A model generated the notes under the pieces. It did not search any database. It was not told the DNA's origin and worked only from the letters and a program-made list of their open reading frames with translations. Below are positions 2,929-21,541 of a stretch of DNA of 60,198 nucleotides, one piece after another; positions within the stretch are counted from its first letter, which is position 1, and each line of letters opens with the position of its first letter. The position numbers and the translations under genes are program-made. This stretch comes from a phage: assembly GCA_018175315.1 (NCBI GenBank), contig GCA_018175315.1_4769.1. One strand, written 5' to 3'.

Positions 2929-3423
2929 ATGTACGTCCTAATTGATACAGATAAATTTGAACTCTTGGCAAAGCATCCCAATTGGTTGACATTACACCAA
3001 CTTGGAATTATCTGTTGTCCAGAGTCAACACTGGTAACACCAGTAAACGATTTAAAAGATCTTGAAGATGTTGATCTTCAACTGCTTTATATTAACCTGA
3101 CAGAAAACTTAGGAGCTGCACCATATGAACGGGAAATCGTTGAGCGCATTTTGTCTGATTACTTTACGCAACTTCCAGAAACGATCCTGGATCACGCCCA
3201 AATCAGCGCACAAGCCGAATTCTGTGTGGAATACGATATCCAAGGCTTTTGCTCACCTCAAATTGGGCAATACGTTCCGTCAATGGATGAAGGACTTTGG
3301 AAACCTGCCCGTGTCAAATACGATGCTGAACGGGAGGGTGGTATTATTTCCGGTGCCAGGGTCATTTGTGAGCAACCCGCATTGCAAGAAGCATGGACAC
3401 CGGGCAGAGGTGCGAAGAGCTAA
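2929..3423 (+). CDS. hypothetical protein
   Basis: 164-aa ORF with AGGGGA-type RBS; no recognisable motifs. Confidence 0.5.
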   Translation: MYVLIDTDKFELLAKHPNWLTLHQLGIICCPESTLVTPVNDLKDLEDVDLQLLYINLTENLGAAPYEREIVERILSDYFTQLPETILDHAQISAQAEFCVEYDIQGFCSPQIGQYVPSMDEGLWKPARVKYDAEREGGIISGARVICEQPALQEAWTPGRGAKS

Positions 3424-3550
3424 TAAGTTCTAACCCTGATCAAAAATATTTTTAAAAATGTTTATGTAAGGGGTTGCGTGTCACAAAATCCTTTGGTACA
3501 TTTAACCCCGTTGGTAACAAACGAACCCATAATAATTCGGAGTGAAGAAA

Positions 3551-4354
3551 ATGAGTAATATTGAAGATAAGAAAGCCGCTGCTGCCGCAGCCGCTGCTGC
3601 CGCTGCAAAATCTGCTAAGCCTGCAAAGAAAGAAGCTACTGCTAACGACGCAGAAGCTAAAAAAGCCGCTGCCGCTGAAGCTGCACGCGTAGCGAAAGAG
3701 AAAAAAGAAGCAGAGAAAAAAGCTGCCGCTGAAAAGAAACAAGCTGAAATTCGTACTGAAGCGGAAAATAAATTTACCGCTCTTTCCCAGGCAGTTGAAA
3801 CCGTGAAGTTTGCTTTATCCGGTATTACCGATGAAAGCACTGTTGAACAGATTACGGAAGCAGAATCTAAGGGTTCTGAACAGCTGAAGCATTTAAAGAA
3901 TGCTCTGAAAGATCTGAAAGCAGTTGTTAAAAAATCCAAAGGTGAAGATCTGTCCGGTGCAGTAACTGCTGCTCAGAGCATGGTCGACGAACTGGATTCG
4001 TCTATCAAAGGCTTCAAAGACAAGATCCGCGCTGCTAAACAGGCTGAAAAGGCTGCTGAAAAAGCCCGCGAAAAAGCTGAACGTGAAAAAGCGAAAGAAG
4101 CGAACCGTATGCCTGAACAGAATGGTGTTCGTCGTCCGCAACCGGAAACTTCCTGCGGTCGTGCCTGGGCTCTGATGGACCAGATTAGCGCTACGCTGGG
4201 TCAGCCTGCTCCGATCTCTTATGTTCTGAATCTGGCAGGTCGTCACGGTCTGAACGAAGATACTGTTAAAACTCAGTATGCACGTTGGAAGAAGTTTAAT
4301 GGTGTGACTGGTCGCGTACCTATGCCAGTACCGGAAGCCCTGAACGGCTTGTAA
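3551..4354 (+). CDS. Ala/Lys-rich low-complexity protein (histone H1-like composition) with globular C-terminal domain
   Basis: GGAG RBS 8 nt before ATG 3551 (ORF track begins at GTG 3542); poly-Ala run and KKEAEKKAAAEKK-type repeats. Confidence 0.55.
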   Translation: MSNIEDKKAAAAAAAAAAAKSAKPAKKEATANDAEAKKAAAAEAARVAKEKKEAEKKAAAEKKQAEIRTEAENKFTALSQAVETVKFALSGITDESTVEQITEAESKGSEQLKHLKNALKDLKAVVKKSKGEDLSGAVTAAQSMVDELDSSIKGFKDKIRAAKQAEKAAEKAREKAEREKAKEANRMPEQNGVRRPQPETSCGRAWALMDQISATLGQPAPISYVLNLAGRHGLNEDTVKTQYARWKKFNGVTGRVPMPVPEALNGL

Positions 4355-4378
4355 TATCAAAACATATCACGTTATAAT
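4349..4378 (+). promoter_or_regulatory. promoter candidate TTGTAA-N18-TATAAT immediately upstream of terminator hairpin
   Basis: Perfect -10 TATAAT at 4373-4378; -35-like TTGTAA overlaps the stop codon of the upstream gene. Confidence 0.3.
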
Positions 4379-4379
4379 G

Positions 4380-4408
4380 AAAGCGCCCAATGAGGCGCTT
4401 TCTTTTTC
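4380..4408 (+). terminator. rho-independent terminator
   Basis: Stem AAGCGCC / GGCGCTT with loop CAATGA followed by TCTTTTT. Confidence 0.6.
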
Positions 4409-4423
4409 ACTAGAGGATTTAAG

Positions 4424-5131
4424 ATGAATATTAATCAACAAGCTCCCGAGTCCCGTTCTAAAGAAAACGATATGTATTTAGACGTGCATTCGGTATTCTC
4501 TACCATTCAGGGTGAAGGTCCATTCTGCGGCCAACCTGCTGTATTTGTGCGTCTTGCTGGGTGCAACCTGCAATGTCCTGGCTGTGATACGGATTATACT
4601 GTTGGTCGTAGTCTTTATCATATTGTCGATATTATGCGTTTAATCGAAAGCCGTAAGCTGGAATCGGGCAATAGCACCTCACTTGTGGTTATCACTGGGG
4701 GTGAACCGTTCCGTCAGCAAATTAACCCGTTTATTGAACAACTGTTATCGCGCGGCTATTTGGTGCAAATTGAAACTAATGGGTCTATGCCTTTACCTAA
4801 GAACTTTTCCCAGTTACCTGTAATTGTATGTAGTCCCAAGACCTCAAAGATTCATCCTTCTGTGCTGCGCCGCGCTAATGCATTTAAATATGTACTTAAA
4901 GCGTGCTGTGTAAACGTGGAAGATGGTTTACCTCTTCAAGCATTAGATCATCAAGCTACGCCATTTATCGCTAGACCTCCGAAGGGTTTCAAGGGTAAGA
5001 TATATTTACAGCCAATGGACGAGCAGGATGAAGACCTTAACCACAGTAATATCCAAGCCGTTGTCCAAAGCTGTATGAAACACGGTTACACGTTGCAGCT
5101 TCAGGTTCACAAATATATCGGAGTGGAATAA
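4424..5131 (+). CDS. queE: 7-carboxy-7-deazaguanine synthase QueE (radical SAM)
   Basis: Radical-SAM CxxxCxxC motif (CNLQCPGC) near N-terminus; GAGG RBS; sits in operon with queC/queD/folE. Confidence 0.85.
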   Translation: MNINQQAPESRSKENDMYLDVHSVFSTIQGEGPFCGQPAVFVRLAGCNLQCPGCDTDYTVGRSLYHIVDIMRLIESRKLESGNSTSLVVITGGEPFRQQINPFIEQLLSRGYLVQIETNGSMPLPKNFSQLPVIVCSPKTSKIHPSVLRRANAFKYVLKACCVNVEDGLPLQALDHQATPFIARPPKGFKGKIYLQPMDEQDEDLNHSNIQAVVQSCMKHGYTLQLQVHKYIGVE

Positions 5132-5385
5132 TGCGTGTGTTAAGCCAGGTTGTGCATACTAAAGATGTTAATTTTTGTGGTGTCACTTTAACCGTTCCAA
5201 GTCGAGTGGATTATCTGGCAGCCGACAAGGATGGGAATGTTTGGGGATATGAAGCAATTCCTCCAGAACTTAGCCATCGCTTTGATAGATGGTTGCCAGC
5301 AGATCCGGAAGCTTGCGAGTACGATGAAATAGCTGATGTAGATCTTGAAGGCTTAGACTGGACTCAAACATTAACGGAGGTTTAA
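5131..5385 (+). CDS. hypothetical protein (inside deazaguanine operon)
   Basis: 84-aa ORF, GGAG RBS, ATG overlaps queE stop (translational coupling). Confidence 0.5.
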   Translation: MRVLSQVVHTKDVNFCGVTLTVPSRVDYLAADKDGNVWGYEAIPPELSHRFDRWLPADPEACEYDEIADVDLEGLDWTQTLTEV

Positions 5386-5598
5386 ATGATCACTTTGGAA
5401 GAAGCGAAACAGCATCAGGAAATGATCACTGAACTGGTAGAAAAACTTAATTCTTCAATTGCCCACGCTACTATGCAGGGCGTGCATGTAGAATTAGATA
5501 TTAATTACGTTAGCACAATTGGAGCGCGCAATCACCCAATTGTGATGTCAAACGTAACAATTAACCCTTGTGATATTAAAGGTGAAGTAAATGAATAA
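5386..5598 (+). CDS. hypothetical protein (inside deazaguanine operon)
   Basis: 70-aa ORF with GGAGG RBS immediately after upstream stop. Confidence 0.45.
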   Translation: MITLEEAKQHQEMITELVEKLNSSIAHATMQGVHVELDINYVSTIGARNHPIVMSNVTINPCDIKGEVNE

Positions 5599-6313
5599 AT
5601 TAGATAAAATGGTATTCCCTGTAAAAAATCATAACTCCGCCGTTGTCGTCCTGTCTGGCGGCCAGGACAGTGTGACCTGTTTGGGTCTTGCACTTAATAA
5701 CTATGACAAAGTCTACGCTATTGGTTTTGCATACGGTCAACGTCATAACATTGAGCTGGCTTGTGCTAATCAAATCTGTAAAGAGCACGATGTCCCGTTT
5801 GTTGTCTTTGAATTACCTGCTTTGAAACAGATTGGTAATAGTGCTTTAATCGGGAACGAAGGGGATGTTAACGAACATCACGAACAGCACAACAACCTTC
5901 CGGCAAGCTTTGTACCAAACCGTAATGCTCTTTTCCTGACTACCGCGCACGCCTACGCGCAGAAGGTTGGAGCCCGATATGTGGTTACAGGCGTTTGTGA
6001 AACAGACTATAGCGGTTATCCGGATTGCCGCCGGCAGTTTGTAGACATGCTTGAAGCTACATTAAACGTTGCATATGAAACAGATATTTATTTCGTTACC
6101 CCGCTTATGCGTTTAAATAAAGCAGAAACGTTTGAGCTGGCGGATAAGGTTGGTTTCTTAACCACAGTGATTGAACAGTCCCATACTTGCTATAATGGCG
6201 TCCGTCGCACTCTGCATGACTGGGGATATGGTTGCGGTGAATGTCCTGCGTGCAAACTGCGTGCTAAAGGGTACAGCGAATTTATGGATAACGCTTACAG
6301 CAAACACGTTTGA
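5591..6313 (+). CDS. queC: 7-cyano-7-deazaguanine (preQ0) synthase QueC
   Basis: PP-loop SGGQDS; C-terminal Zn-binding cysteines (CYNG...CGECPAC). Confidence 0.85.
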   Translation: MNKLDKMVFPVKNHNSAVVVLSGGQDSVTCLGLALNNYDKVYAIGFAYGQRHNIELACANQICKEHDVPFVVFELPALKQIGNSALIGNEGDVNEHHEQHNNLPASFVPNRNALFLTTAHAYAQKVGARYVVTGVCETDYSGYPDCRRQFVDMLEATLNVAYETDIYFVTPLMRLNKAETFELADKVGFLTTVIEQSHTCYNGVRRTLHDWGYGCGECPACKLRAKGYSEFMDNAYSKHV

Positions 6314-6433
6314 TCTTACCGCGAAAACCGCACCGCTAGCGCATTGTTTAGGGTGCGGGAACCCAACTATACTACTAAAGCTTTTAAACCCAACAACCAG
6401 CGAATAACGCTGTTAAAACTGGAGAACAAAAGT

Positions 6434-6913
6434 ATGAAATTTATCGTTGCTTATCTGGCTGCAATCACATTCGTAAATCTGGGCTTTTCCTACCTTCCAA
6501 TGCTTAACACGCCTCTTGGCGTAGTCCCCATGATGGCTTTCTTTGTAGGTATTATCTTTGTTCTGCGTGATTACGCACAGCGTAACGCTGGCAAAGGCGT
6601 TATCCCTGCAATGATTGTGGGTTGCATCCTTAGCTGGGTATTTGGGGATCCTGCTGTTGTAGTTGCATCCGTTGCATCCTTTGCTCTTAGCGAGTTTGCG
6701 GACTATGCGGTATACACGATTACTAAGAAGCCTTTCCATCAACGAGTATTTATCAGCTCTTTGGTAGCTGTACCGATTGACTCCATTGTGTTCTTAAGTA
6801 TTATAGGTATTGTTAATCCGGGATCAATGGTAGCAATGAGCTTAAGTAAGTTCACAGCATCCGCTATCCTTTGGGTTGTTTACGAAGTTCATTCACGTAC
6901 AGCAAGAGCGTAA
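6434..6913 (+). CDS. small polytopic membrane protein, possible queuosine-precursor transporter (YhhQ/QueT-like) by context
   Basis: GGAG RBS before ATG 6434; about 5 hydrophobic segments; embedded between queC and queD. Function is inferred from context only. Confidence 0.4.
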   Translation: MKFIVAYLAAITFVNLGFSYLPMLNTPLGVVPMMAFFVGIIFVLRDYAQRNAGKGVIPAMIVGCILSWVFGDPAVVVASVASFALSEFADYAVYTITKKPFHQRVFISSLVAVPIDSIVFLSIIGIVNPGSMVAMSLSKFTASAILWVVYEVHSRTARA

Positions 6914-6915
6914 AA

Positions 6916-7473
6916 ATGAAAGATAATTTGAATAAAATTTGGCACCAACACGACGGTAAAGGAATGCCTATTTTTCTTCGTAATGAGAAGTTTGAAGTTC
7001 TTTTGCGCAACGGCACACACGTTAAGAATCTATTACATGGATGGGATTGGGCTATAGAAGGGCGTTCGGCTATGGATGAGAATAGCCCTTATAAAGTTCA
7101 AGATATTATAGCCTGGAGATATATTGTTGCGGATGATTACGTCAAACAATCTATTGAAGCAAATTTGCCCGACTGGAGAATTGATAAAACCGCAATTTTT
7201 ACGAAATATGAACCATCTAAAATTCCCATGAATAAATATCAGAAAGTTATTTATGGTAAAGATGAAAACGGCAATGTTGTAAAATGCATCGTGGACGTGT
7301 ATGATGTCTTGGAAGCTTGGAAAACAACTAACCCAGCTTTGCAGCATTTGATTAAAAAAGCGTTGCAGCCTGGCGAACGGGGTCATAAACATCTGGTAGA
7401 AGATTTGAAAGACATTATTGCGTCGGCGCAGCGTGCGTTAGAAATTGAACAGTCTAAAGAGGTATTAAAATGA
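6916..7473 (+). CDS. hypothetical protein (inside deazaguanine operon)
   Basis: 185-aa ORF from ATG 6916, tightly packed between the membrane protein and queD (ATGA overlap with queD); no recognisable catalytic motif. Confidence 0.5.
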   Translation: MKDNLNKIWHQHDGKGMPIFLRNEKFEVLLRNGTHVKNLLHGWDWAIEGRSAMDENSPYKVQDIIAWRYIVADDYVKQSIEANLPDWRIDKTAIFTKYEPSKIPMNKYQKVIYGKDENGNVVKCIVDVYDVLEAWKTTNPALQHLIKKALQPGERGHKHLVEDLKDIIASAQRALEIEQSKEVLK

Positions 7474-7991
7474 GTTATACAGTAATTCGTTCACATGAAA
7501 TTTGCGCTGGACATCGTGTTGTAGGGCATGAAAGCAAGTGTCGCCACCTTCATGGTCACAACTATAAGTTTCACTTTAAGGTTGCGCCGAAAGGTTGTAC
7601 GGACGTTAAAGTTATTCGCTGTGGCACACTTCGCGAAAAAGGTGGGCTGGACGACGTGGGACGCGTGATCGATTTTAGTGTGGTTAAAACTACGCTGTGT
7701 CAGTGGCTGGAAGATAACTGGGACCATAAGTTCCTGCACTGGGAGCATGATCCGCTCATTGAGAGCTTAAATAAATTTGTAGATACGACAACTATGGACA
7801 ATATGTCGCATCGGGATCAAATGGATTATTTAGGTTCGCTGGTGTCACTTCCATTCAACCCGACCGCTGAAAACTTAGCTGCGTACATGGTTGAAGTAAT
7901 TGGACCACAGCTGCTTGACGAACATGGTGTTCAACTTGTAGAATGCACCATCGAAGAAACTTCGAAATGTCACGTAAACTATAGCCTGTAA
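7470..7991 (+). CDS. queD: 6-carboxy-5,6,7,8-tetrahydropterin synthase QueD
   Basis: Cys/His Zn-binding signature CAGHRVVGHESKCRHLHGHNYKF typical of the QueD/PTPS family. Confidence 0.8.
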   Translation: MSYTVIRSHEICAGHRVVGHESKCRHLHGHNYKFHFKVAPKGCTDVKVIRCGTLREKGGLDDVGRVIDFSVVKTTLCQWLEDNWDHKFLHWEHDPLIESLNKFVDTTTMDNMSHRDQMDYLGSLVSLPFNPTAENLAAYMVEVIGPQLLDEHGVQLVECTIEETSKCHVNYSL

Positions 7992-7992
7992 T

Positions 7993-8652
7993 ATGACCAC
8001 ATTAACAACAAGGAAACTGCAAACCATGCCAAAATTTACTATTGATAATGAAGGTACTCAATTCCGTATTGCTCGCGCGGTGCGTACTTTACTAACTCAG
8101 ATTGAAGATTGCACTGAATTACGTCCAGGATTAGCAGAGACACCAGACCGTGTCGCTAAAGCTTATGCTACATGGTTTAGCGGTTACGATGTAGATATTG
8201 CTGGTCTGTTTAAAACCTTTGAGGATGGGGCGGAAAACACCAATGAAATGGTCATTGTCCGTGATATTCCTGTTTACAGTCATTGTGAACACCATATGGC
8301 CCCTATTATCGGTCGCGCTGTCGTGGGGTATGTTCCTAACGGTCGCATCGTGGGGCTCAGTAAGCTGTCTCGCGTTGTGGATGCTTTTAGTCGTCGACTG
8401 CAAGTTCAGGAACGTCTTACTAACCAGATTGCAGACGCTATTCAGGAGCATTTAAACCCGAAAGCTGTATGTGTTTATATTGACGCCAAGCATATGTGCA
8501 TGGAGGCAAGAGGAATCAAGCAGGTTTGTGGCTCGAGCACTATTACGAAAGCTTTCCGTGGAGCTACAGAGCTGGAACATGGTAGTGATATTGGTAAACA
8601 ATGGCGCCAAGAATTTTTAGAATCTGCTACTAATTATCAACGGATTCGTTAA
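7993..8652 (+). CDS. folE: GTP cyclohydrolase I FolE (alternative start at ATG 8026)
   Basis: Conserved CEHH and GLSK motifs (YSHCEHHMAPIIG...GRIVGLSKLSRVV...RLQVQERLT). Confidence 0.85.
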   Translation: MTTLTTRKLQTMPKFTIDNEGTQFRIARAVRTLLTQIEDCTELRPGLAETPDRVAKAYATWFSGYDVDIAGLFKTFEDGAENTNEMVIVRDIPVYSHCEHHMAPIIGRAVVGYVPNGRIVGLSKLSRVVDAFSRRLQVQERLTNQIADAIQEHLNPKAVCVYIDAKHMCMEARGIKQVCGSSTITKAFRGATELEHGSDIGKQWRQEFLESATNYQRIR

Positions 8653-8653
8653 T

Positions 8654-9112
8654 ATGCCAAGGGTCTATACTAAAAAGCCGATGTCCGAAAGACTAAGCAA
8701 ATACGTTATAGACCCTTCTACTGGTTGCTGGAACTGGACTGGTAGTAAGGATAAAGACGGTTACGGTAGAATGATTAGTGGTTCCAAAGGTGAACGAATT
8801 TTTAGTTTTGCGCATCGCGAGAGCTATAAACTGTACAAAGGAGAAATTGGTTTACCTGATTCCGCTACAGGGTGCGTTCTGCATACATGTGATAATCCGT
8901 CTTGCATTAACCCAGATCATTTATATTTAGGAGATCAAAAACAAAACGGGTTGGATAAGAAAGTTAGAGGGAGGGCAAGGACACGTCCACGGTTTGGGAA
9001 AGATAACCCAATGTATCAAAAATATGGTGAACTGAATCCAATGTACGGGAAACATCATACAGAGGAAACCAAACGTAAAATTAGCGAAACTAAGAAAGCT
9101 AATTTTAAATAA
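8654..9112 (+). CDS. HNH homing endonuclease
   Basis: HNH_3-type pattern (GCWNWTGSKDKDGYGRM ... HRESYKLYKG ... CDNPSCINPDHLYLGDQKQN); inserted between folE and dpdA. Confidence 0.7.
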   Translation: MPRVYTKKPMSERLSKYVIDPSTGCWNWTGSKDKDGYGRMISGSKGERIFSFAHRESYKLYKGEIGLPDSATGCVLHTCDNPSCINPDHLYLGDQKQNGLDKKVRGRARTRPRFGKDNPMYQKYGELNPMYGKHHTEETKRKISETKKANFK

Positions 9113-9130
9113 TAGATAGCTTTACAGATC

Positions 9131-9166
9131 AAGCCCATATCGGTCATAATACTGGTATGGGCTTTT
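9131..9166 (+). terminator. terminator-like hairpin with T-run (weak)
   Basis: AAGCCCATA ... TATGGGCTT with 16-nt loop followed by TTTTT, between HNH and dpdA. Confidence 0.3.
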
Positions 9167-9191
9167 TAGTCATTGGAGGTTTATTTAAGAT

Positions 9192-10112
9192 ATGAATGTA
9201 TTCATGGCGGCTGTGTATACTAACGGCTATATGCCTGGCCAGCAGCGTTATGAAAAGCTGTCTGAGCATGAGAAAAATATCACGCGCAATCTGCCCCATA
9301 TTTTGGAATCATACCACTACGTTGGGCGTCAGAAGTATGTTGATCAGATGCGTGCGGACGGGGCTAAAGTGTTTCTCGACTCCGGTGCATTCTCCGCGCA
9401 CTCGTTAGGTGCTCACATTGATATTGTTGAATACTGCGAATACATTAAGCGTAACAAAGACATCCTTCGCGTAGAAGATGGTGCGGTGATGGCATCGGTG
9501 CTCGATGGTATCGGTGATCCGCTACAAACCTACCGTAACCAGCTTGAAATGGAAGCACGCGGTGCTAAACCGTTACCTTGCTTTCACTTTGGGGAGGACT
9601 TCCGCTATCTTGAATACTACATGAAGAACTACGAATATATCACCATTGGGGGTATGGTAGGGCGTTCCACGGACACGCTTAAGACTTGGCTTGACCGCAT
9701 GTGGGACAAATATATTTGCGACGGTAGCGGACGTGCTAAGATTAAACTTCATGCGTTTGGTATTACGTCCACAACCATTATGGAGCGTTATCCGTGGTAT
9801 AGCTGCGACTCATCCTCCTGGATACAAGCGGCAGCGTTTGGAAGTGTGGTTACTCCTCCGTGGGGCCCAATGCGCGTATCCGATAAGTCACCGGACCGCC
9901 ATCATTTTGGTAAGCATGTTTCAACGTTAACTGAAATTGAACAAGACGCTGTCCTTAAATACCTTGAGCAAAACGGTTTCACTTACGAACGTTTATCAAC
10001 AATTTATGAATCACGTGCTGCCTTCAATTTATGGGCTTATGGTGTAATTGCTGCAAACATTAACGCTACCCATGACGGCACATTCCGTGATCGTGTAATG
10101 GAGTTGTTCTGA
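9192..10112 (+). CDS. dpdA: DpdA-like 7-deazaguanine DNA transglycosylase (TGT superfamily)
   Basis: TGT-like motifs (FLDSGAFS, LHAFG, YSCDSSSW); adjacent to the preQ0 biosynthesis genes. Confidence 0.8.
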   Translation: MNVFMAAVYTNGYMPGQQRYEKLSEHEKNITRNLPHILESYHYVGRQKYVDQMRADGAKVFLDSGAFSAHSLGAHIDIVEYCEYIKRNKDILRVEDGAVMASVLDGIGDPLQTYRNQLEMEARGAKPLPCFHFGEDFRYLEYYMKNYEYITIGGMVGRSTDTLKTWLDRMWDKYICDGSGRAKIKLHAFGITSTTIMERYPWYSCDSSSWIQAAAFGSVVTPPWGPMRVSDKSPDRHHFGKHVSTLTEIEQDAVLKYLEQNGFTYERLSTIYESRAAFNLWAYGVIAANINATHDGTFRDRVMELF

Positions 10113-10339
10113 TGGCTAACTTAAGAAGACCAAAAGGTAAACGTAAATATACTCACACAGGCGTAAGAATTAATTATTACGGTGAAAACAGAGTAGTATT
10201 TCTCCACAAGACACCTAAGCAGTGGCAGGATCCGTCAGGTACATGGTTTAATGCACAAGGAAAACAAATGGGACTTTATGGATACCCTCCAACCTGTGAA
10301 TTAGATTTAACCACAATTAGAGCAATCGAGGATCGCTAA
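10112..10339 (+). CDS. hypothetical basic protein
   Basis: 75-aa ORF, ATG overlaps dpdA stop. Confidence 0.45.
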   Translation: MANLRRPKGKRKYTHTGVRINYYGENRVVFLHKTPKQWQDPSGTWFNAQGKQMGLYGYPPTCELDLTTIRAIEDR

Positions 10340-11292
10340 TGTTAGACGCTCTTAAATTTGTTCAAGGCTCCGTCGCTAAAAAGGAACTGGTAGAAGGGCT
10401 TACCAGCTTTCTTATCCGTGATGGACAGGTACAGGGCTTTAACGGTGTTATTGCACTGGGTAGTCCTATTGAGCTGGATATTGATTGCAAGCCCGAAGCT
10501 GGGCCTATGATTAAAGCTATTTCAAACTGTGACGAAACCGTACAGTTAACAATGATGGCTAACGGTAAACTTAATATCAAGTCCGGGCCGTTTCGTGTTG
10601 CTATACGCTGCATTGATAAAGAAACGCCGCACGTATTCCCTGAAGGTGATTTATACGAAATAGACGGTGCTCGCTTCGTACACGGTGTGAAGTCCGTTGC
10701 TCCGTTTGTAGGCTCAGATGCATCCCGCCCGTGGGCTTGCGGTATTCTGATTAATAACGGTAGCCTGTTTGCTACAAATAACGTCACCATTGCGGAATAT
10801 TGGTTTGGTAATCAATTCCCTATTGACTGCATAATACCGTCTGTTGCTATTAAAGAAATACTGCGCATTAAAGCTAACCCGACGCATATTCAGGTTAGCA
10901 AGAATAACGTAACGTTTCATTATCCGGAAGGTCGCTGGTTGCGGACACAGCTTATTGATGCGGAATGGCCCGATATACGTCGTATTTTAAATGTTCAATG
11001 CAATGCACATCCTGTTGATCCAGGTCTTTTTGAAGGCTTGCATAAAATTAAACCGTTCGCAGAAGACCGACCGCGTGTATATATTGAAAACGGTCTAGCC
11101 CGTACTCACTATGATGATGCAGAAGGTGCAAGCTTCGTATTACAGGACCGCACAATAACGGGAGTGTACAATATTGACATCCTGCTATTGCTTGAAAATG
11201 TGGTTAAGACGGCGGACTTTAGTTTATATCCGCAACCTTGCGCATTCTTTGGGGAAAATCTTCGCGGTGTATTAATTGGAGAACGTGTCTAA
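10339..11292 (+). CDS. DNA polymerase sliding clamp (DnaN/beta-clamp-like)
   Basis: QLIDAEWPDIRRIL resembles the beta-clamp KLVDGRFPDYRRVLP motif; N-terminus beta-clamp-like; directly upstream of the polymerase. Confidence 0.55.
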   Translation: MLDALKFVQGSVAKKELVEGLTSFLIRDGQVQGFNGVIALGSPIELDIDCKPEAGPMIKAISNCDETVQLTMMANGKLNIKSGPFRVAIRCIDKETPHVFPEGDLYEIDGARFVHGVKSVAPFVGSDASRPWACGILINNGSLFATNNVTIAEYWFGNQFPIDCIIPSVAIKEILRIKANPTHIQVSKNNVTFHYPEGRWLRTQLIDAEWPDIRRILNVQCNAHPVDPGLFEGLHKIKPFAEDRPRVYIENGLARTHYDDAEGASFVLQDRTITGVYNIDILLLLENVVKTADFSLYPQPCAFFGENLRGVLIGERV

Positions 11293-13277
11293 TGCGGACA
11301 GATGCTATTGGTTTCTTTTGGCAGGACTTACCGCCTGAGCCAAAAGCAAAGAAAGAAAAAGTTAAACGTTTACCGCCGGAGCGCACTTGGGAGCGCCCGG
11401 ATTATCTACCTAACCTTGAGGAAGCGCGGAACTTCCAATACAACCTGTATACGCAGGATGAACTTATTCAAGCATGGATTAACCGCGAACCGCTTGTATA
11501 CGATATCGAATGTTATCCAAACTATTTCTTAATTGCATTTCGCGGAGTACGAACTAAGAAAGTTGTCTACTTCGAGATGTATCACGGTTGTAGTTTGAAT
11601 TGCTTGTTACTTAACTGGGTAATGACAAACTTCCTTATCGTAAGCTTTAACGGTAACGGGTACGATATGCCCATTGCTACGCTTGCGCTTAACGGCTGCT
11701 CTAATGCTCAGCTTAAAGATGCAACCGATAAGATAATCGTGGAAGACTGGCGTCCTTCCGATGTGTTAAAGAGTTACCGTCTTAAGCGTATGCAGAACGT
11801 TAACCACATTGATATTATGGAAGTGTTGCCTGGGTCCGGTGGTTTGAAACAATACGGCGGACGTATGCATACTCGCCGTATGCAGGATTTACCGTTCAAG
11901 CCTAATACAATGTTGACGCAAGACCAGATGCTTATTGTGCGATGGTACTGTATTAACGACCTTGTACAGACGGAAGAATGTTTTATTGCATTACAAGAAC
12001 CTTTGCACCTTCGTGAAATTATGTCGCAAGAATACGGTGTGGACCTGCGTTCGCGCTCCGATGCACAAATTGTAGAAGACGTAATTAAGCACGAAATCCA
12101 AGCGTTAACGGGCGTGCGCCCACAGCGTCCGCAAGTTTATCCTGGAACAAAGTATGCATACAACATACCGGACTTTATTCGTTTTCAAACGCCTTTAATG
12201 AATAGTGTTTTGGATATTGTTCGGGACTGTCGCTTTATTGTTAGCGATAACGGTGGTGTTAGCTTACCACCTGCATTAACAGGTCTTGAGATCAAGATTG
12301 CGGACGGTGTCTACCGTATGGGTATTGGTGGTTTGCATAGCTCCGAAGAGTGTGCTGGCCACGGTAAAGAGCCTGGTATCAAAAAGCGGGACATTGACGT
12401 AACGTCTTATTATCCTTCAATCATTCTTAATCAGGGCTTATATCCAGAACAGTTGGGACCAGCGTTCCTTCGTGTTTATAAGAGTATTGTAGATCGTCGT
12501 ATTGCAGCTAAGCACGCAGGGGACAAGAACACAGCCAACACGCTGAAGATCGTCATTAACGGATCGTTCGGTAAGTTGGGGTCCATGTGGTCTGTACTGT
12601 ACGCTCCGCAATTATTGATACAAGTTACATTAACCGGACAGCTTTCACTGTTGATGCTTATTGAAGCATTTGAGTTAAATGGTGTTAAAGTAATTTCGGC
12701 TAACACGGATGGCATTGTGGTTAAGTATCCAGACCACATGCAGGACTTCGTTGATAATATGATCAAGTGGTGGGAGTCTGTGACAGGTTTTGAAATGGAA
12801 TCCACTTATTATGACAAGCTATACAGTGCAAACGTTAACAACTATGTAGCTGTCAAGGAACCTGATGCAGAAGGTAACATTGAAGTCAAGCGTAAAGGTT
12901 GGTTTGCCAAGACAGGTCTTCAAAAGAACTGTACTGGCGAAATCATTATGGAAGCTGTATGTGAATGTTTGGCCCACGGTACGCCTGTTTCTCGTACTAT
13001 ACGCAATTGCAACGATATTAGAAAATTCATTATCCTACGTGCAGTAAAAGGCGGCGCGGTATGGAATGGCGAATTTTTGGGTAAGGTTGTACGCTGGTAT
13101 TTAAGCACCAATGAAGAAACCCCTGAAATAATCTATGCTAACTCAGGCAACCGTGTAGCTGGTAGCTCGGGTGGTGTCCCGATCATGACGCTACCGGATA
13201 AAGTACCGGACGACATAGATTACGACGCTTATATAGCTAAGGCTGAAAAATATCTCGAAGACATGGGATACGCCTAA
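11292..13277 (+). CDS. DNA polymerase with 3'-5' exonuclease domain (family-B-type motifs)
   Basis: Exo motifs YDIECYP and SFNGNGYDMP; polymerase motifs DVTSYYPSII (A), KIVINGSFGKLG (B), ANTDGI (C). ATG 11292 overlaps upstream stop (TAATG); ORF track begins earlier. Confidence 0.75.
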   Translation: MRTDAIGFFWQDLPPEPKAKKEKVKRLPPERTWERPDYLPNLEEARNFQYNLYTQDELIQAWINREPLVYDIECYPNYFLIAFRGVRTKKVVYFEMYHGCSLNCLLLNWVMTNFLIVSFNGNGYDMPIATLALNGCSNAQLKDATDKIIVEDWRPSDVLKSYRLKRMQNVNHIDIMEVLPGSGGLKQYGGRMHTRRMQDLPFKPNTMLTQDQMLIVRWYCINDLVQTEECFIALQEPLHLREIMSQEYGVDLRSRSDAQIVEDVIKHEIQALTGVRPQRPQVYPGTKYAYNIPDFIRFQTPLMNSVLDIVRDCRFIVSDNGGVSLPPALTGLEIKIADGVYRMGIGGLHSSEECAGHGKEPGIKKRDIDVTSYYPSIILNQGLYPEQLGPAFLRVYKSIVDRRIAAKHAGDKNTANTLKIVINGSFGKLGSMWSVLYAPQLLIQVTLTGQLSLLMLIEAFELNGVKVISANTDGIVVKYPDHMQDFVDNMIKWWESVTGFEMESTYYDKLYSANVNNYVAVKEPDAEGNIEVKRKGWFAKTGLQKNCTGEIIMEAVCECLAHGTPVSRTIRNCNDIRKFIILRAVKGGAVWNGEFLGKVVRWYLSTNEETPEIIYANSGNRVAGSSGGVPIMTLPDKVPDDIDYDAYIAKAEKYLEDMGYA

Positions 13278-17246: not shown

Positions 17247-19013
17247 TTATGGAAGATCTGCAGTCTGTGAATTGTTTAGATTAGAAATGAGTTCTTTTAG
17301 TTTCTTATTATCTTCTTCCAAAGATTCAATCCGTTTTATAAGTTCTTGCACCACATGCATCGTATCCAAAAGCATAGGTGTTGTGTCAAGTTCCTTTTGT
17401 TCAACAATCTCTCCTGGATTACTGCCAACATATTTACGCGTCTTAACATATAAAGGCTCAACAACCTCTGCTTGCTGTGCAATCACGCCATGCCGAACTC
17501 GATTTTGTTCGTCATTGTCATAAATGAACTCTACAAATTCCAGACCTTGGATATTAGAGTATGACTTTTCAACTCCAACAGGGGCGATGCCGTGTTTTAC
17601 ACGTGAGTCAGAAGTACCATTTTTTGTATAACTAAAGTTCCCGTAATCAGTTGAACAATTTATTTGCCCATCAATGTCAAAAAAGTAACGGCAGAATTTT
17701 CCAGCGTCTCCACCGATAACTACACAGGCTTTGCCAAATGCGTTATTACCTGGAATATACATGTGATATCCAACCTTTGTTGGATATCCATTAGGTCTGA
17801 TGCCGCCGATAGAATAGCCGCGCACCAGCGTATCTGATCCACTCTCGATTGCCACCCTGTCCATTCCGTTAGTGGTCAAGTTAGGCCCGTCGGCATCCGT
17901 TATCCCGTTCCACGTACCAATAGGCGTATACATGCGGAATGGGTTGACCTTCCCTGACTGTCGAAAGTCTACCGTACCATCATCATAAAACTTGTAGGAG
18001 TGTTTAGCGGAGCCTTCAGATTCTATAACAGCCGCAGTATAAGAACCCCAGGTAGTATCAGAGTATAGACGAGCAAACCGCTTACCTGCTGGGTTGGAGT
18101 ATTCCGATACTACTTTACCACCACGAACGGAGGTATTCTGCGGAGGTGTGCTACTATCTGCATTCTTAACACTCCACGAGGTATTCGCAGCTACGAACCC
18201 ACCAGAAGCACGAATTACCCACACACCGACAAAGTTTCGTGTAAGAATCTCATCTGTTGATGCTCCGTAAATTTGACTTGAACGTGAGGCGTCAAAATTT
18301 AGCGTGTTACAACGGCCAGTAAGCGGTGTCTTACCTGCGGGGATGACATCCCCATCCCCGTTAGGAAAAAGCATATTATCAGAAAAGAATGCACCTCTAG
18401 CAGCAGAACCGAATACCTGAGCATACGTACCTCCTGAGTAACTAGGAACAGCACCAGTAATATTAGGTGCAGCAGATTCAAATAGCTGACCATTTGCATT
18501 ACTATTCCCGCCATCACCACGACCATAAAGAGCGCGTATTGATCCCTCCTGCACCCCATTCTTGTCTGGAACACGAAAAGTTGTTGTTCCATTTCCTGAT
18601 GAGTATTTACCACGCTGGAATTTATCAGCTAACCAAACTGAATCATCTATAGCCCCAACCATTTGTGCATACGCCCAGAGTTCAGGCCAATCCGCTCGAT
18701 TCAATAACTGTCCATCAGAAACGACTTCATACGGTTGAATATATGCACGACTGTCGCGTAAGTGGAAGTCACCAACACCATAATTCATGACGCCATTCAT
18801 AGTGGGTCCAACTATACCAGTATTAATCTTATTTTCTACCCAACGTTTGGTTGCAGCATCATAGTCCATAACAGGATCCCCAGCAAGCGGAGTAGATCCA
18901 ATAGGTCGCACGTTTAACCACGCTGCTGCGCGGTCCGCTAAGTCGCTCAGGTTTGCACTCTTTTTAAGAGAGTTCTTGATGTCAGCCGGAATATTTGTTA
19001 CTTGCTTAGTCAT
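17247..19013 (-). CDS. tail fibre protein with C-terminal intramolecular-chaperone-like domain
   Basis: GGGAG RBS before ATG 19013; Gly/Ser/Asn-rich beta-type composition; C-terminal SDSRVKHG resembles the S-D-x-R-x-K self-cleavage site of fibre chaperone domains, followed by coiled-coil tail. Confidence 0.65.
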   Translation of the reverse strand: MTKQVTNIPADIKNSLKKSANLSDLADRAAAWLNVRPIGSTPLAGDPVMDYDAATKRWVENKINTGIVGPTMNGVMNYGVGDFHLRDSRAYIQPYEVVSDGQLLNRADWPELWAYAQMVGAIDDSVWLADKFQRGKYSSGNGTTTFRVPDKNGVQEGSIRALYGRGDGGNSNANGQLFESAAPNITGAVPSYSGGTYAQVFGSAARGAFFSDNMLFPNGDGDVIPAGKTPLTGRCNTLNFDASRSSQIYGASTDEILTRNFVGVWVIRASGGFVAANTSWSVKNADSSTPPQNTSVRGGKVVSEYSNPAGKRFARLYSDTTWGSYTAAVIESEGSAKHSYKFYDDGTVDFRQSGKVNPFRMYTPIGTWNGITDADGPNLTTNGMDRVAIESGSDTLVRGYSIGGIRPNGYPTKVGYHMYIPGNNAFGKACVVIGGDAGKFCRYFFDIDGQINCSTDYGNFSYTKNGTSDSRVKHGIAPVGVEKSYSNIQGLEFVEFIYDNDEQNRVRHGVIAQQAEVVEPLYVKTRKYVGSNPGEIVEQKELDTTPMLLDTMHVVQELIKRIESLEEDNKKLKELISNLNNSQTADLP

Positions 19014-19015
19014 AA

Positions 19016-19291
19016 TTACGCCCACTCCCTTAAAGGTTGCTCAAGAATAACACTGTGGTTACTGTACTGGGTAAAATCAAACGAGTCATCAATAACCCTT
19101 ACGTTCACATAATACCCTTCATTTTGAATATATGTTGGTTCGTCTGATAAACTTTCAACTTCTGTAAAGGTGTATCCTATTACATCAAGCATTATTTGGT
19201 TTTGCAAAGTTTCATTGCCTTCCCAATCAATGACCACAAGAAAATCTTCAAACGCCTTCTTGTCCTTAAATTTCATAGTTAAGTCTTTCAT
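19016..19291 (-). CDS. hypothetical protein between tail-fibre genes (possible fibre assembly factor)
   Basis: 91 aa with GGAG RBS; start overlaps upstream stop. Confidence 0.45.
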   Translation of the reverse strand: MKDLTMKFKDKKAFEDFLVVIDWEGNETLQNQIMLDVIGYTFTEVESLSDEPTYIQNEGYYVNVRVIDDSFDFTQYSNHSVILEQPLREWA

Positions 19292-21417
19292 ACAGACTCC
19301 TTCAATTCACGGTCAGTCAATGCTTTATGCCATACTCGAAGATTTCTGACATGCCCGAATAAATGGCGCTGCCCCGTTGTTGTCTGACCGCCAATACGAA
19401 TGGTTGCAGAGCTTTGAATATAGGACCATGTGGCTTTCTTTTCGCTGGATATACGCCCGTTACTTACTGCACATGTCATCTGATCTTCCTTCACACGCAT
19501 CCCCATAACCATTTTTTCAAGCGATGCGTTTTCGTTTACCCGTCTGTTAGCTCCTCCAATATCGCAATAAGGAAATCCGTCGTAATCTGCTGAAGAACCG
19601 AAGCCAAGAATAATAGCCGCTCCGGTTTGATGACCGCCGGTATCAAAAACACGCGGCGCTGCATTTGGCGTTTTATACCAGTTCTTATGTACCTCACAAA
19701 GAACCGTAAAAGGAAGATTATAAAGATTATTCTTAATTGGAACTGTAACTATATCGCTTGCGCGGGTCGCCGCCGTCGCTCCTGATATAATAAAAGATGA
19801 TACACAAGGCCCATCTTCTACTTGTGGGGTGGCCAGATAAATATAGTCACCAGATACGGTTGCCCCGCTCTGCTTAGGAGAATACTGTATCTGAGAGCCT
19901 ATTTTTAACTCCCCATCAATTGCCTGAATTGTTGCCTCTGCAAAAATCCATCCGGTAGCTTCGTCCTTTCTGACTCTCGCTGTAATCCTTGAGGCAGCAC
20001 CGCCTGTCATATTAATTTCAAGCGTTTGTGTATCAATATACGCATCACCAAGAAAAGTTGTTGCGCTACCGTCATATTTATCAAACCGGATACGCAACCT
20101 TACCTGCAGTTCTGTTTTAAAACGACATGAGGTTGTCACGTATTTATTATAGCCTGAGACATCAACTGACTTTGTTGCAGCAATTGATGCCATATTAATG
20201 GCTGAGGTTTGCCCAATCAGAGAATCGTTACAGACGAACTTTCCATAGGTAAAACCAAAACTATCCTTCCCGGTTTCGGGAACATCCATATTTGACGATC
20301 GCCCCCAACTGGCAGGGTTTTCCGAATTGAGCATGTAGTTTGTTCTTTGCCCCTCAATAAGCAGGCCATCACGTTCAAATCGTGGCTCGTCAACTTCAGC
20401 AACGGTTAATACTCCTGATTTATTAATGTATGTTGCACCTGACGCCCGTTTGAAATCCACAACCTTATCGGACGGCATTTTAATAACATCATCACCTACA
20501 GTTATTTGCTTATAGCCTGGTGCAAACCCCGCTAACATATCCAGTGAGTCGTTGAAAGGAATCCATACATCAGGGAAAGGTTGAATTTCTGGAGCATTGT
20601 TAGCAGCAGATTCCGCACGGTCTGCTTCCGTCTTTGCGCGGTCTGCGTCGTTTTTAGCTGCGGTTGCGCTTGTACCTGCGTTACCTGCTTGTTGTCCCGC
20701 TTCGGTAGCGCTATTACTTGCTTGTGCAGCAGACGCGGCAGCGGCGTCTTTTAGCGCGGTAGTTTCGGACACAGCAGCGTCCTTAATTGCTTGCGTCTCG
20801 CTTATTGCGCTATTCTTAATAGTCTGTGTATCCGACTTTAATTTTTCAACATCCTTTTTGAGATTTGTTATTGTGGTTACAGCTTGGGTTGCAGTGTTAG
20901 CAGAGCCCGCAGCACTGGACTGGGCTTGTTTAGCTGCATCCGCGTTAGTTTTAGAATCATTCTTATATGTAAGCGCTTCACTTGCAGAAGAAGCAGCCGC
21001 CGCTTTACTATTACGTGCGTCGGTAGCATCTGAGTTTGCTGCGGCAGCAGAGCGTCCAGCTTGCAGAGCATATTCTTCAGAGTTAGCCACAAGTTGCTGG
21101 ACTTGTTTGATAACATCTGGAGTTAATTCTTCTGGAGCCCAGTTAATTAAATATCCGTTCAGCGAACCTTCAGGACTGTCACCATAAATAACAATCTCCC
21201 CAGCTTTATAAGGCTCAACACCTTGAGGTCCGATGATTACTTTATAACGACCAGTCTGGACAGTTACATTATACGCACCGGATCCGTCAGTGCGGAATAT
21301 AGCCTCACTACCATTAAGAACGGTAATTGTGTTCCCTTTAGCAATAAGAGCAACTGTAGCGTTGATGATTGGTTTATTTAAACCATCCATCAGAATACCA
21401 TGTAGACGAGTTGCCAT
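19288..21417 (-). CDS. tail fibre / receptor-binding protein with C-terminal lectin (LamG)-like domain
   Basis: AGAGGT RBS before ATG 21417; beta-rich N-terminal domain, Ala/Ser-rich coiled middle, C-terminal region lectin-like by composition. Confidence 0.6.
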   Translation of the reverse strand: MATRLHGILMDGLNKPIINATVALIAKGNTITVLNGSEAIFRTDGSGAYNVTVQTGRYKVIIGPQGVEPYKAGEIVIYGDSPEGSLNGYLINWAPEELTPDVIKQVQQLVANSEEYALQAGRSAAAANSDATDARNSKAAAASSASEALTYKNDSKTNADAAKQAQSSAAGSANTATQAVTTITNLKKDVEKLKSDTQTIKNSAISETQAIKDAAVSETTALKDAAAASAAQASNSATEAGQQAGNAGTSATAAKNDADRAKTEADRAESAANNAPEIQPFPDVWIPFNDSLDMLAGFAPGYKQITVGDDVIKMPSDKVVDFKRASGATYINKSGVLTVAEVDEPRFERDGLLIEGQRTNYMLNSENPASWGRSSNMDVPETGKDSFGFTYGKFVCNDSLIGQTSAINMASIAATKSVDVSGYNKYVTTSCRFKTELQVRLRIRFDKYDGSATTFLGDAYIDTQTLEINMTGGAASRITARVRKDEATGWIFAEATIQAIDGELKIGSQIQYSPKQSGATVSGDYIYLATPQVEDGPCVSSFIISGATAATRASDIVTVPIKNNLYNLPFTVLCEVHKNWYKTPNAAPRVFDTGGHQTGAAIILGFGSSADYDGFPYCDIGGANRRVNENASLEKMVMGMRVKEDQMTCAVSNGRISSEKKATWSYIQSSATIRIGGQTTTGQRHLFGHVRNLRVWHKALTDRELKESV

Positions 21418-21541
21418 TTTTACCTCTTGTTTCGCAGAGTTGATCAATTAATGGATGCACTATGGCATATAAATATGGTAAATTAAATTAGAATATAAAA
21501 CAATATTGTCTATCATCTTTAACCACATTGTTGGAGTAATT

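Follow-up and report, generated by a model that had tools for sequence, protein, structure and literature searches.

Identity of the region

The plus-strand region 4424–10112 of the window (the whole analysed stretch of phage DNA, 60,198 nt) is very probably the 7-deazaguanine DNA-modification module of Seuratvirus (Queuovirinae), a system that phage CAjan also has. The module is already known and is well studied in E. coli Seuratvirus phages, with CAjan as the type example. The region encoded QueE, two small ORFs, QueC, a VUT/YhhQ-like protein, a 185-aa ORF, QueD, FolE, an HNH/NUMOD3 protein, and DpdA (Table 1). An ORF check found every gene named in a preliminary description of this DNA in its place on the plus strand. 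The window represented an entire Seuratvirus genome in circularly permuted form and was collinear with CAjan, and the closest database records were Seuratvirus phages with 92–95% identity. The window was a mosaic, and its alleles occurred scattered among different Seuratvirus isolates.

Table 1. Features of the 7-deazaguanine module and its flanks (positions in the window).
Feature	Position	Strand	Assignment	Evidence
Upstream hairpin	4379..4402	+	Terminator-like, 9-bp G+C-rich stem then T-run, in the upstream gene/queE gap	Folding
queE	4424..5131	+	Radical-SAM 7-carboxy-7-deazaguanine synthase	NCBIfam, PHROG, identity to CAjan gp45
orf84	5131..5385	+	Variable within genus	phrog_1972 (unknown function), 2e-21
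orf70	5386..5598	+	Homologue of CAjan gp44	92.9% identity
queC	5591..6313	+	7-cyano-7-deazaguanine (preQ0) synthase, stand-alone, without Gat domain	Pfam, NCBIfam
Membrane protein	6434..6913	+	VUT/DUF165 (YhhQ-like), putative preQ0 importer	Vut_1, hhalign, CAjan gp41
orf185	6916..7473	+	Variable N-terminal half, widely conserved C-terminal domain of ~80 aa	phrog_23361, 5e-107
queD	7470..7991	+	6-carboxy-tetrahydropterin synthase	Pfam PTPS, PHROG
folE	7993..8652	+	GTP cyclohydrolase I	Pfam, NCBIfam, motifs
HNH gene	8654..9112	+	Free-standing HNH/NUMOD3 homing endonuclease	NUMOD3, PHROG endonuclease
Downstream hairpin	9131..9164	+	Terminator-like, 14-bp stem then T-run, conserved	Folding vs shuffles
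dpdA	9192..10112	+	preQ0-inserting DNA guanine transglycosylase (phage DpdA1 type)	Identity to CAjan gp35, PHROG 887
orf75	10112..10339	+	Homologue of CAjan gp34	100% identity; phrog_38388 (unknown function), 8e-58

The CAjan cluster comprises gp34–gp45 (Hutinet et al. 2019, PMC6884629; Kot et al. 2020, PMC7544227). Relative to the genes for DNA polymerase and the clamp, the two phages shared gene order and orientation. Gene content and protein identities were read directly from the window: amino-acid identity to CAjan was 100% for DpdA, QueE, and the gp34 homologue, 98.7% for the membrane protein (gp41), 96.7% for QueC (gp42), and 92.9% for the gp44 homologue, whereas FolE (gp37, 88%), QueD (gp38, 78.6%), and orf185 (gp40, 54%) were more diverged. 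CAjan gp36, gp39, and gp43 were missing from the window, and orf84 and the HNH homing endonuclease of the window were missing from CAjan.

Among the SLUR/BASEL Seuratvirus isolates (PMC5758909, PMC8594841), slur01 matched the cluster best at the nucleotide level, with 94.7% identity across 99% of the query. It carried orf84 and the HNH gene (100% amino-acid identity) at the equal place, but its QueD was just 76% identical. In slur01, WildeMaa, and CAjan, the orf70 homologue and queC are separated by an additional ORF of 62 aa, which is missing from the window. Annotations of the BASEL phages name a dPreQ0 synthase QueC, a preQ0 transporter YhhQ, and DpdA.

Enzymes of preQ0 synthesis

Judged by sequence comparison, the family assignments were far beyond chance because of their E-values. 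QueC scored 250 bits against Pfam QueC over residues 17–231 of 240, passed the equivalog cut-off of TIGR00364 (241.6 vs 150.3 bits), and contained the SGGQDS PP-loop. FolE scored 214 bits against Pfam GTP_cyclohydroI and 193.9 bits against TIGR00063 (cut-off 181.6), with CEHH and GLSK motifs. QueD matched Pfam PTPS (78.5 bits) and the PHROG QueD-like family (1e-54); its score for TIGR03367 QueD, 57.7 bits, was under the model cut-off. The top NCBIfam matches of QueE were QueE models (E 6e-28 to 2e-20), every one under its curated cut-off. QueE also matched a QueE-like PHROG (6e-69) and carried the radical-SAM motif CxxxCxxC as CNLQCPGC. [quoted passage not shown]

The most likely start of the membrane protein was the ATG at 6434 (159 aa), compared with the listed ORF 6344–6913. 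Its Pfam Vut_1 score, 25.5 bits, was slightly under the cut-off of 27.2, and Vut_1 was matched by 15 of the 15 members of its family. Comparison by hhalign gave 99.5% probability over 155 columns with a cellular group JGI-named 'queuosine precursor transporter'; similarity to E. coli YhhQ was very weak (9.5 bits only). The profile matches identify the protein as a distant VUT-family member. It had been put forward as a possible additional component; the family identity is now assigned, but CAjan yhhQ is dispensable for modification (PMC7544227). The protein would probably import external preQ0 as a salvage route that is not required.

The DNA transglycosylase

DpdA kept all the residues named in PMC7544227: D63, S64, F67, D105, H132, G153, G154, F189, and D206. 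It matched PHROG 887 'queuine tRNA-ribosyltransferase' at 8e-96. The three-dimensional model was of moderate quality (pLDDT 65); its best Foldseek match was arcTGT (1J2B_A, E 2.8e-3, probability 0.99), only marginally ahead of generic TIM barrels. Sequence searches with DpdA gave no match to Pfam TGT or to any PDB TGT, and the NCBIfam bacterial DpdA model gave only 16.9 bits (cut-off 200).

The original annotation of these phages was 'queuosine biosynthesis', and many database records keep this name and 'queuine tRNA-ribosyltransferase'. These names, and a nearest solved fold that is the tRNA enzyme arcTGT, would fit a cluster that feeds preQ0 to queuosine- or archaeosine-like tRNA modification, with a transglycosylase acting on tRNA and not on DNA. 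This is highly improbable. Without the identical DpdA, CAjan DNA has no dPreQ0 and is no longer resistant to restriction (PMC6884629). No tRNA is encoded in the window, the TGT models were not matched by sequence, and DpdA has 306 aa, compared with 576 aa in the arcTGT chain, and no C-terminal tRNA-binding domains. The preliminary description had proposed a DpdA-type enzyme inserting the base into DNA and had set a canonical tRNA-TGT against it; identity to the experimentally tested CAjan protein favoured the phage DpdA.

The bacterial Dpd system (DpdA/DpdB/DpdC, Salmonella Montevideo) and archaeal arcTGT likewise insert preQ0 by TGT-superfamily base exchange. In contrast to the bacterial system, neither a DpdB or DpdC partner nor a dADG step was found in the window. 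Unlike arcTGT, the window DpdA would, by analogy with CAjan, have DNA and not tRNA as substrate, and the arcTGT C-terminal domains are missing. In the proposed mechanism, the phage DpdA, a TIM-barrel relative of archaeosine tRNA-guanine transglycosylase, would flip out guanines in GA and GGC after replication. Cleavage of the glycosidic bond would pass through a covalent intermediate at Asp206, with Asp63 acting as the base, and preQ0 would be inserted.

Expected base and extent of modification

LC-MS/MS of CAjan virion DNA showed 70,628 dPreQ0 per 10^6 nt (~32% of G); dPreQ0 was the sole 7-deazaguanine (PMC6884629), with dADG below 6 per 10^6 nt. Deletion of dpdA gave zero dPreQ0 and fully restrictable DNA (PMC6884629). 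HaeIII and EcoRV are among the enzymes blocked in CAjan. The modification was mapped to GA and GGC motifs by nanopore sequencing, and wild-type levels needed folE, queC, and dpdA (PMC7544227); the CAjan genetics did not include single knockouts of queE or queD. BASEL Seuratvirus phages are resistant in vivo to type I and type II restriction-modification systems (PMC8594841). These findings on the base, the need for dpdA, the motifs, and restriction protection come from the literature on identical or near-identical proteins. We infer the base and its level from the close relative CAjan, and the present phage would modify its DNA as CAjan does.

The whole window yielded no gene for Gat, ArcS, or QueF; therefore, dPreQ0 is the expected base. 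A six-frame search of the window with E. coli QueF gave no match. The Gat half of the phage 9g protein also gave no match in the window, and 9g Gat-QueC aligned only via its QueC half (aa 241–457). ORFs in window segments missing from CAjan matched no GATase, QueF, or ArcS family, and QueC, at 240 aa, was too short for a Gat domain. The earlier preference for preQ0 over preQ1 or archaeosine was thus borne out by the whole genome and by CAjan, which carries dPreQ0 alone.

Phage 9g (Nonagvirus, archaeosine/dG+ cluster) belongs to the same subfamily, and its cluster likewise adjoins clamp and polymerase genes, with 69% identity for DpdA, 78% for FolE, 71% for QueD, and 64% for QueE. However, its 471-aa Gat-QueC fusion yields dG+, whereas the window QueC is stand-alone and 27% identical to the QueC half. 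No YhhQ-like gene is annotated in the 9g cluster.

GA/GGC contexts held 28.6% of the G in the window, compared with 28.1% in CAjan. Replacement of guanine by a 7-deazaguanine, as described earlier, was upheld, but as a partial replacement: ~30% of G would become dPreQ0, at GA and GGC motifs and not at G generally. The modified DNA would withstand numerous restriction enzymes of types I and II; in E. coli Seuratvirus phages, the preQ0 swap of about one third of the guanines serves as an escape from such enzymes.

Small ORFs

The three ORFs described earlier without function (orf84, orf70, and orf185) were present and still had no assignment after profile searches. orf84 had neither a Pfam nor an NCBIfam match; it occurred in slur01 (97.6%) and WildeMaa (96.4%) and was missing from CAjan. 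The label of phrog_26258 for orf70, 'radical SAM domain-containing protein', was given no weight: the product has 70 aa and no Pfam or NCBIfam radical-SAM match. The PHROG match of orf185 began at the ATG at 6916, compared with 6871–7473 in the ORF list. The majority of its 972 homologues shared the C-terminal domain alone, and it was 49% identical to the C-terminus of 9g gp07. Pfam, PDB, and fold searches gave no match to orf185, and its conserved domain adjoined ERF/YqaJ/SSB genes in unrelated phages, with no deazaguanine genes near. orf75 is a further cluster gene just beyond the region described earlier. Its start overlapped the dpdA stop, both of its junctions were start/stop overlaps of the ATGA type (gap −1), and the CAjan authors include gp34 in their 12-gene cluster.

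Four cluster ORFs without assigned function could leave room for another 7-deazaguanine (dG+, dPreQ1, dADG, or dCDG), formed by an unrecognised tailoring activity of orf84, orf70, orf185, or orf75 or by altered QueC chemistry. orf84 is missing from CAjan, and therefore CAjan chemistry does not cover it; unexpected derivatives from phage pathways are also on record (PMC10516641). Such a product is nevertheless improbable. None of the four ORFs matched a catalytic family, whether GATase, ArcS, QueF, methyltransferase, or any other, and orf84 (84 aa) and orf70 are small for enzymes. The orf185 domain lies away from deazaguanine genes in unrelated phages, and QueC, above its equivalog cut-off, closely resembles the dPreQ0-yielding CAjan protein.

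HNH gene and hairpins

The HNH product scored 33.8 bits against NUMOD3 (cut-off 20.4) and matched a PHROG endonuclease at 4.5e-40; HNH_3 and zf-His_Me_endon were under their cut-offs. The gene was not found in CAjan or WildeMaa, where a small ORF occupies a different place in the folE–dpdA gap. It is an insertion polymorphism outside the pathway, and would be a selfish homing endonuclease.

The insertion between folE and dpdA, a folE 3' end that differed from CAjan and WildeMaa at the junction, and the missing CAjan small ORFs gp36, gp39, and gp43 would be expected of a decaying, inactive remnant with unmodified DNA. This is the least credible alternative, since the five enzyme ORFs were complete and undisrupted, motifs included, and the FolE Pfam domain (residues 26–195) lay upstream of the altered tail. 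The viable isolate slur01 has the identical HNH arrangement, and small ORFs of the gp36/gp39/gp43 type vary across the genus.

The genes had been described as an operon. They were clustered on the same strand, but one single operon was not established because the strong hairpin at 9131–9164 separates folE and the HNH gene from dpdA. The segment 9113–9191 folded at −25.9 kcal/mol (z = −4.8), and none of 200 shuffles folded as well. In CAjan and WildeMaa, the hairpin sequence sits directly 3' of folE. A promoter-like TTTACA-N18-CATAAT at 9121–9150 overlapped this hairpin. The hairpin upstream of queE folded at −16.6 kcal/mol (z = −3.7 vs shuffles).

Gene Content of the Modification Cluster

An ORF list was compiled over window positions 3000–12500, and the products were searched against Pfam, NCBIfam, and PHROGs. 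Plus-strand genes run through this region without interruption. Window proteins were also compared by tblastn with those of Escherichia phage CAjan (gpNN), the type example of the genus Seuratvirus, and CAjan proteins with the window. The genes are listed in the table, in which orf84, orf70, orf185, and orf75 are named by their length in amino acids.

Genes of the preQ0 DNA-modification cluster, their profile matches, and identity to CAjan proteins
Gene	Position	Strand	Basis of assignment	Identity to CAjan
queE	4424–5131	+	Five QueE models as best NCBIfam matches (E 6e-28 to 2e-20, below cut-offs); PHROG QueE-like (6e-69); CxxxCxxC motif	100%
orf84	5131–5385	+	No match to a family of known function	
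orf70 (gp44)	5386–5598	+	No match to a family of known function	92.9%
queC	5591–6313	+	Pfam, 250 bits; TIGR00364, 241.6 bits (above cut-off of 150.3)	96.7%
Membrane protein (YhhQ-like)	6434–6913	+	Weak Vut_1 and TIGR00697 matches	98.7%
orf185 (gp40)	6916–7473	+	No match to a family of known function	54%
queD	7470–7991	+	Pfam PTPS, 78.5 bits (passes)	78.6%
folE	7993–8652	+	Pfam, 214 bits; TIGR00063 above cut-off	88%
HNH/NUMOD3 endonuclease	8654–9112	+	NUMOD3 above cut-off; PHROG endonuclease	
dpdA	9192–10112	+	PHROG 887 'queuine tRNA-ribosyltransferase' (8e-96); weak NCBIfam DpdA match	100%
orf75 (gp34)	10112–10339	+	Start overlaps dpdA stop; in cluster as published	100%

The start of the membrane-protein gene was moved from a TTG at 6344 because the PHROG match began at residue 28, and that of orf185 was corrected from 6871. 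The profile searches recovered every gene named in the preliminary description, namely FolE, QueD, QueE, QueC, and a DpdA-like protein. Among the preQ0 pathway enzymes, FolE and QueC passed NCBIfam equivalog cut-offs and QueD passed Pfam PTPS. The motifs described earlier were readable in the translations: CEHH and GLSK in FolE; the Cys-His signature in QueD; and the SGGQDS PP-loop in QueC.

Directly upstream of queE, at 3542–4354, lies a gene for a 270-aa protein matching phrog_11298. This protein has an 11-alanine run, and its N-terminal half is long, of low complexity, and rich in Ala, Lys, and Glu. Over the C-terminal 201 aa it is 100% identical to CAjan gp46, a protein annotated as 'FtrA domain'.

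Genome Identity and Relatives

Megablast of the cluster region returned 44 phage records, nearly all of Escherichia Seuratvirus phages, with slur01 as the top record (94.7% identity, 99% query coverage). A second query of 24.7 kb again returned Seuratvirus phages at 92–95% identity, and identity to any deposited phage did not exceed about 95% in the searched regions. In blastn, the full CAjan genome was collinear with the window in reverse orientation: window position 1 aligned with CAjan 38930, and the CAjan genome ends (1/59670) aligned with window 40333/40334. From this end-to-end correspondence, the 60,198 bp of the window make up an entire Seuratvirus genome in circularly permuted form. 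Its alleles form a mosaic of those found in CAjan and in two other Seuratvirus phages, slur01 and WildeMaa.

The segments absent from CAjan hold chiefly loci for tail fibres and receptor binding, along with a few small ORFs. The lateral tail-fibre genes at 17247–21447 (−) differ from those of CAjan and encode a 592-aa product with a Peptidase_S74 chaperone domain and a 719-aa product with a phage_tail_N domain; the difference fits host-range variation among members of the genus. At 21506–22507 (+), in a segment that CAjan lacks, a 333-aa ORF matching DUF6453 (E 1.5e-120) lies between gpJ-like and tail-fibre genes and runs in the opposite direction to the tail genes around it. It probably represents the variable locus for receptor-binding proteins reported in Seuratvirus phages. 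A small ORF at 49485–49790 (+), also in a segment absent from CAjan, gave an AP2-domain match of 20.9 bits, below the cut-off of 33.3, and could be part of another homing-endonuclease-type insertion.

DpdA and the Tested System of CAjan

The preliminary description had read the dpdA product as a DpdA-like transglycosylase, with a canonical tRNA-TGT as the alternative to be checked. The question is settled in favor of phage DpdA by its 100% identity to the genetically validated CAjan protein. Deletion of dpdA in CAjan removed the modification and left the DNA fully digestible (PMC6884629), and its loss upon dpdA deletion was also reported in a second study (PMC7544227). In a homology model of CAjan DpdA, Asp206 is the nucleophile and Asp63 the base, and the pocket is formed by Ser64, Phe67, Asp105, His132, Gly153, Gly154, and Phe189 (PMC7544227). 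Sequence identity means that the window protein has every one of them (D63, S64, F67, D105, H132, G153, G154, F189, and D206), and none of the nine varied among 46 aligned family members.

Matches to TGT itself were weak or lacking. Pfam TGT did not match DpdA at E ≤ 0.01, and no TGT was found among PDB sequences by phmmer or by a profile of the 46 DpdA sequences, a shallow alignment with members about 70% identical. The DpdA family is too diverged from TGT for these sequence tools; phage DpdA shares 15% identity with arcTGT (Kot et al., PMC7544227). The NCBIfam model of bacterial DpdA, NF041059, matched over one local stretch with 16.9 bits (E 0.002) against a cut-off of 200. CAjan DpdA belongs to the DpdA1 subfamily, as does the DpdA of Nonagvirus 9g (PMC10516641), and the window protein is likewise classified by sequence as a phage DpdA1 and not as an orthologue of bacterial DpdA. 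For an AF2 model of the protein (pLDDT 65, pTM 0.65), the top Foldseek match was the arcTGT of P. horikoshii, 1J2B_A (E 2.8e-3, probability 0.99, TMq 0.42), with generic TIM barrels close behind and other TGTs at ranks 29, 35, and 49. The predicted fold is consistent with the published homology model but would not be strong evidence alone.

The chemistry of the CAjan system has been measured. LC-MS/MS gave 70,628 dPreQ0 per 10^6 nt, about 32% of G, and fewer than 6 per 10^6 of each of the other 7-deazaguanines (PMC6884629). By nanopore sequencing and digests, the modified sites were GA and GGC motifs, and the nanopore modification signal was lost upon deletion of folE or queC (PMC7544227). Deletion of queC lowered dPreQ0 about 12-fold, the residue being attributed to host preQ0 (PMC7544227). 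The system is already known as a signature feature of the genus Seuratvirus (PMC8594841, PMC5758909). The window confirms this picture as another Seuratvirus genome with the 7-deazaguanine module, in which the key enzyme is identical to the experimentally tested one, and no new picture emerges from it. Such hypermodification is an established anti-restriction strategy in Queuovirinae phages. The phage DNA is expected to resist enzymes with GA- or GGC-containing sites, such as EcoRV and HaeIII, and nanopore signal artefacts should occur at these motifs. The phage should largely evade type I and type II restriction-modification systems of the host.

Expected Identity of the Inserted Base

Insertion of preQ0, and not preQ1 or archaeosine, had been proposed earlier from the apparent lack of tailoring genes, and the searches agreed with this. 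The archaeosine (dG+) cluster of phage 9g encodes a Gat-QueC fusion of 471 aa. This fusion matched the window through residues 241–457 only, at 27% identity, and its Gat half had no match anywhere in the window; the window QueC has 240 aa, with the Pfam domain at residues 17–231. E. coli QueF gave no six-frame match in the window (best E-value 4.3). The ten ORFs in the segments lacking from CAjan matched none of the GATase, QueF, or ArcS families, and CAjan, with which the rest of the window genome is collinear, was reported to have no amidotransferase (PMC6884629).

Sub-threshold matches of Pfam QueF and TIGR03139 (24–30 bits) fell on FolE and raised the question of a hidden QueF. QueF and FolE share the tunnelling fold. 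This shared fold is most likely the source of the matches; E. coli QueF itself had no match in the window. No enzyme converting preQ0 further (Gat-QueC, ArcS, QueF, or QueF-L) was found with Gat-QueC and QueF as sequence queries against the window, with family searches of the ten ORFs, and by collinearity with CAjan elsewhere, and dPreQ0 would be the expected product in this phage.

The preliminary description had further implied that guanine in the phage DNA is replaced by a 7-deazaguanine base. This stands as far as the window carries the same preQ0 system as CAjan, but the replacement would be partial and motif-specific, confined to GA and GGC contexts, since these hold 28.6% of all G in the window (28.1% in CAjan).

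A Probable Membrane Protein of the VUT Family

The homologues of the membrane protein were phage proteins of about 160 aa, many with a precomputed PF02592 assignment, and, more distantly, cellular proteins of about 190 aa with the JGI name 'queuosine precursor transporter'. The window protein scored 25.5 bits against Vut_1, just under the cut-off of 27.2, and 20.5 bits against TIGR00697 (cut-off 50.95), and all 15 of the 15 aligned family members matched Vut_1. Alignment of the phage group with the cellular group by hhalign gave 99.5% probability over 155 columns. Homology to the VUT family is thus well supported at the family level. Similarity to E. coli YhhQ, a transporter of preQ0 or preQ1, was very weak, with no tblastn match and 9.5 bits with the phage-family profile, and the phage protein is shorter (159 vs 221 aa). 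Taken together, the family-wide Vut_1 matches, the hhalign result, and the marginal YhhQ similarity suggest a distant, shortened VUT-family member, with preQ0 as its putative substrate. A role in transport, among those considered earlier for this small membrane protein, is putative. Deletion of yhhQ in CAjan had no effect and left full modification, which shows that the gene is dispensable for it (PMC7544227).

Transcription of the Cluster

The cluster had been described as an operon. Junctions between neighboring genes are mostly −8 to +2 nt, which fits co-transcription, but two strong hairpins argue against assuming a single transcript. One hairpin with a U-run lies upstream of queE at 4379–4402 (z = −3.7). 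The other, also with a U-run, lies between the HNH gene and dpdA at 9131–9164; it has a 14-bp stem (z = −4.8), 0 of 200 shuffles folded as well, and its sequence recurs immediately behind folE in CAjan and WildeMaa. A promoter-like TTTACA-N18-CATAAT, a sigma-70-like match at 9121–9150, overlaps it. This element may be a terminator/promoter boundary inside the 'operon'. Given the hairpins and the overlapping promoter-like match, the stretch from queE to folE may be transcribed apart from a unit made up of dpdA, orf75, and the genes for clamp and polymerase. A scan for promoter and terminator consensus was at background level and spoke neither for nor against one operon. In 4200–10500, including the 120-nt gap between queC and yhhQ, neither an Rfam RNA nor a preQ1 riboswitch was found; the sole match was a sub-threshold sraL (E 0.77).

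HNH Gene and Unassigned ORFs

The HNH gene matched PHROG endonuclease and HNH families at 4.5e-40 to 1e-17, and its HNH_3 and zf-His_Me_endon matches were below their cut-offs. It is bordered on one side by a remodelled folE 3' end and on the other by the conserved intergenic hairpin element. slur01 carries a 100% identical copy; CAjan and WildeMaa lack the gene and have conserved flanks. The gene is predicted to encode a free-standing homing endonuclease. CAjan and WildeMaa, which have no HNH gene here, carry an unrelated small ORF (gp36 and bas23_0038, respectively) between the hairpin element and dpdA.

The CAjan cluster comprises gp34–gp45, of which gp36, gp39, and gp43 had no counterpart in the window by tblastn. 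Their absence makes it unlikely that they are needed for the pathway. orf84 is present in slur01 and WildeMaa and absent from CAjan. Judged by their variable presence, orf84 and these three CAjan genes are unlikely to be essential parts of the pathway. The conserved unexplained cluster genes are narrowed to gp34, gp40, and gp44 (orf75, orf185, and orf70).

PHROG 26258 and public annotations call orf70/gp44 a 'radical SAM domain-containing protein'. No radical-SAM signal was found in this 70-aa protein with Pfam or NCBIfam, and the label is regarded as an annotation artefact, probably carried over from the neighboring queE.

In orf185 the N-terminal half is variable, and some 80 aa at the C-terminus form a strongly conserved domain with the consensus NKYQ...VDVYDVL.AW.VTNPALQHLIKKALQPGERGHK..DL.DIIASA.RA.ELE. 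A homologue search returned 972 proteins, most with the C-terminal domain only. No Pfam family matched orf185, a profile search of PDB sequences was empty, and an AF2 model of mediocre confidence (pLDDT 68) gave nothing at E ≤ 0.001 in Foldseek against the PDB. Two distant homologues are encoded among the ERF/YqaJ/SSB early genes of recombination/replication modules in unrelated phages, with no deazaguanine genes nearby. This location argues against a dedicated pathway role, and orf185 was dropped as a candidate pathway enzyme.

The three conserved ORFs accompany the cluster throughout Seuratvirus and partly also in 9g. It is very improbable that one of them (orf75/gp34, orf185/gp40, or orf70/gp44) is a DpdA accessory factor. 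Its function might be to add the second target motif, GGC, one not shared by the DpdA of Pseudomonas phage iggy, or alternatively to couple modification to replication. As for orf185, its C-terminal domain is highly conserved and very widespread among phages, with further occurrences at L007 6001–6693 and L009 2002–2706.
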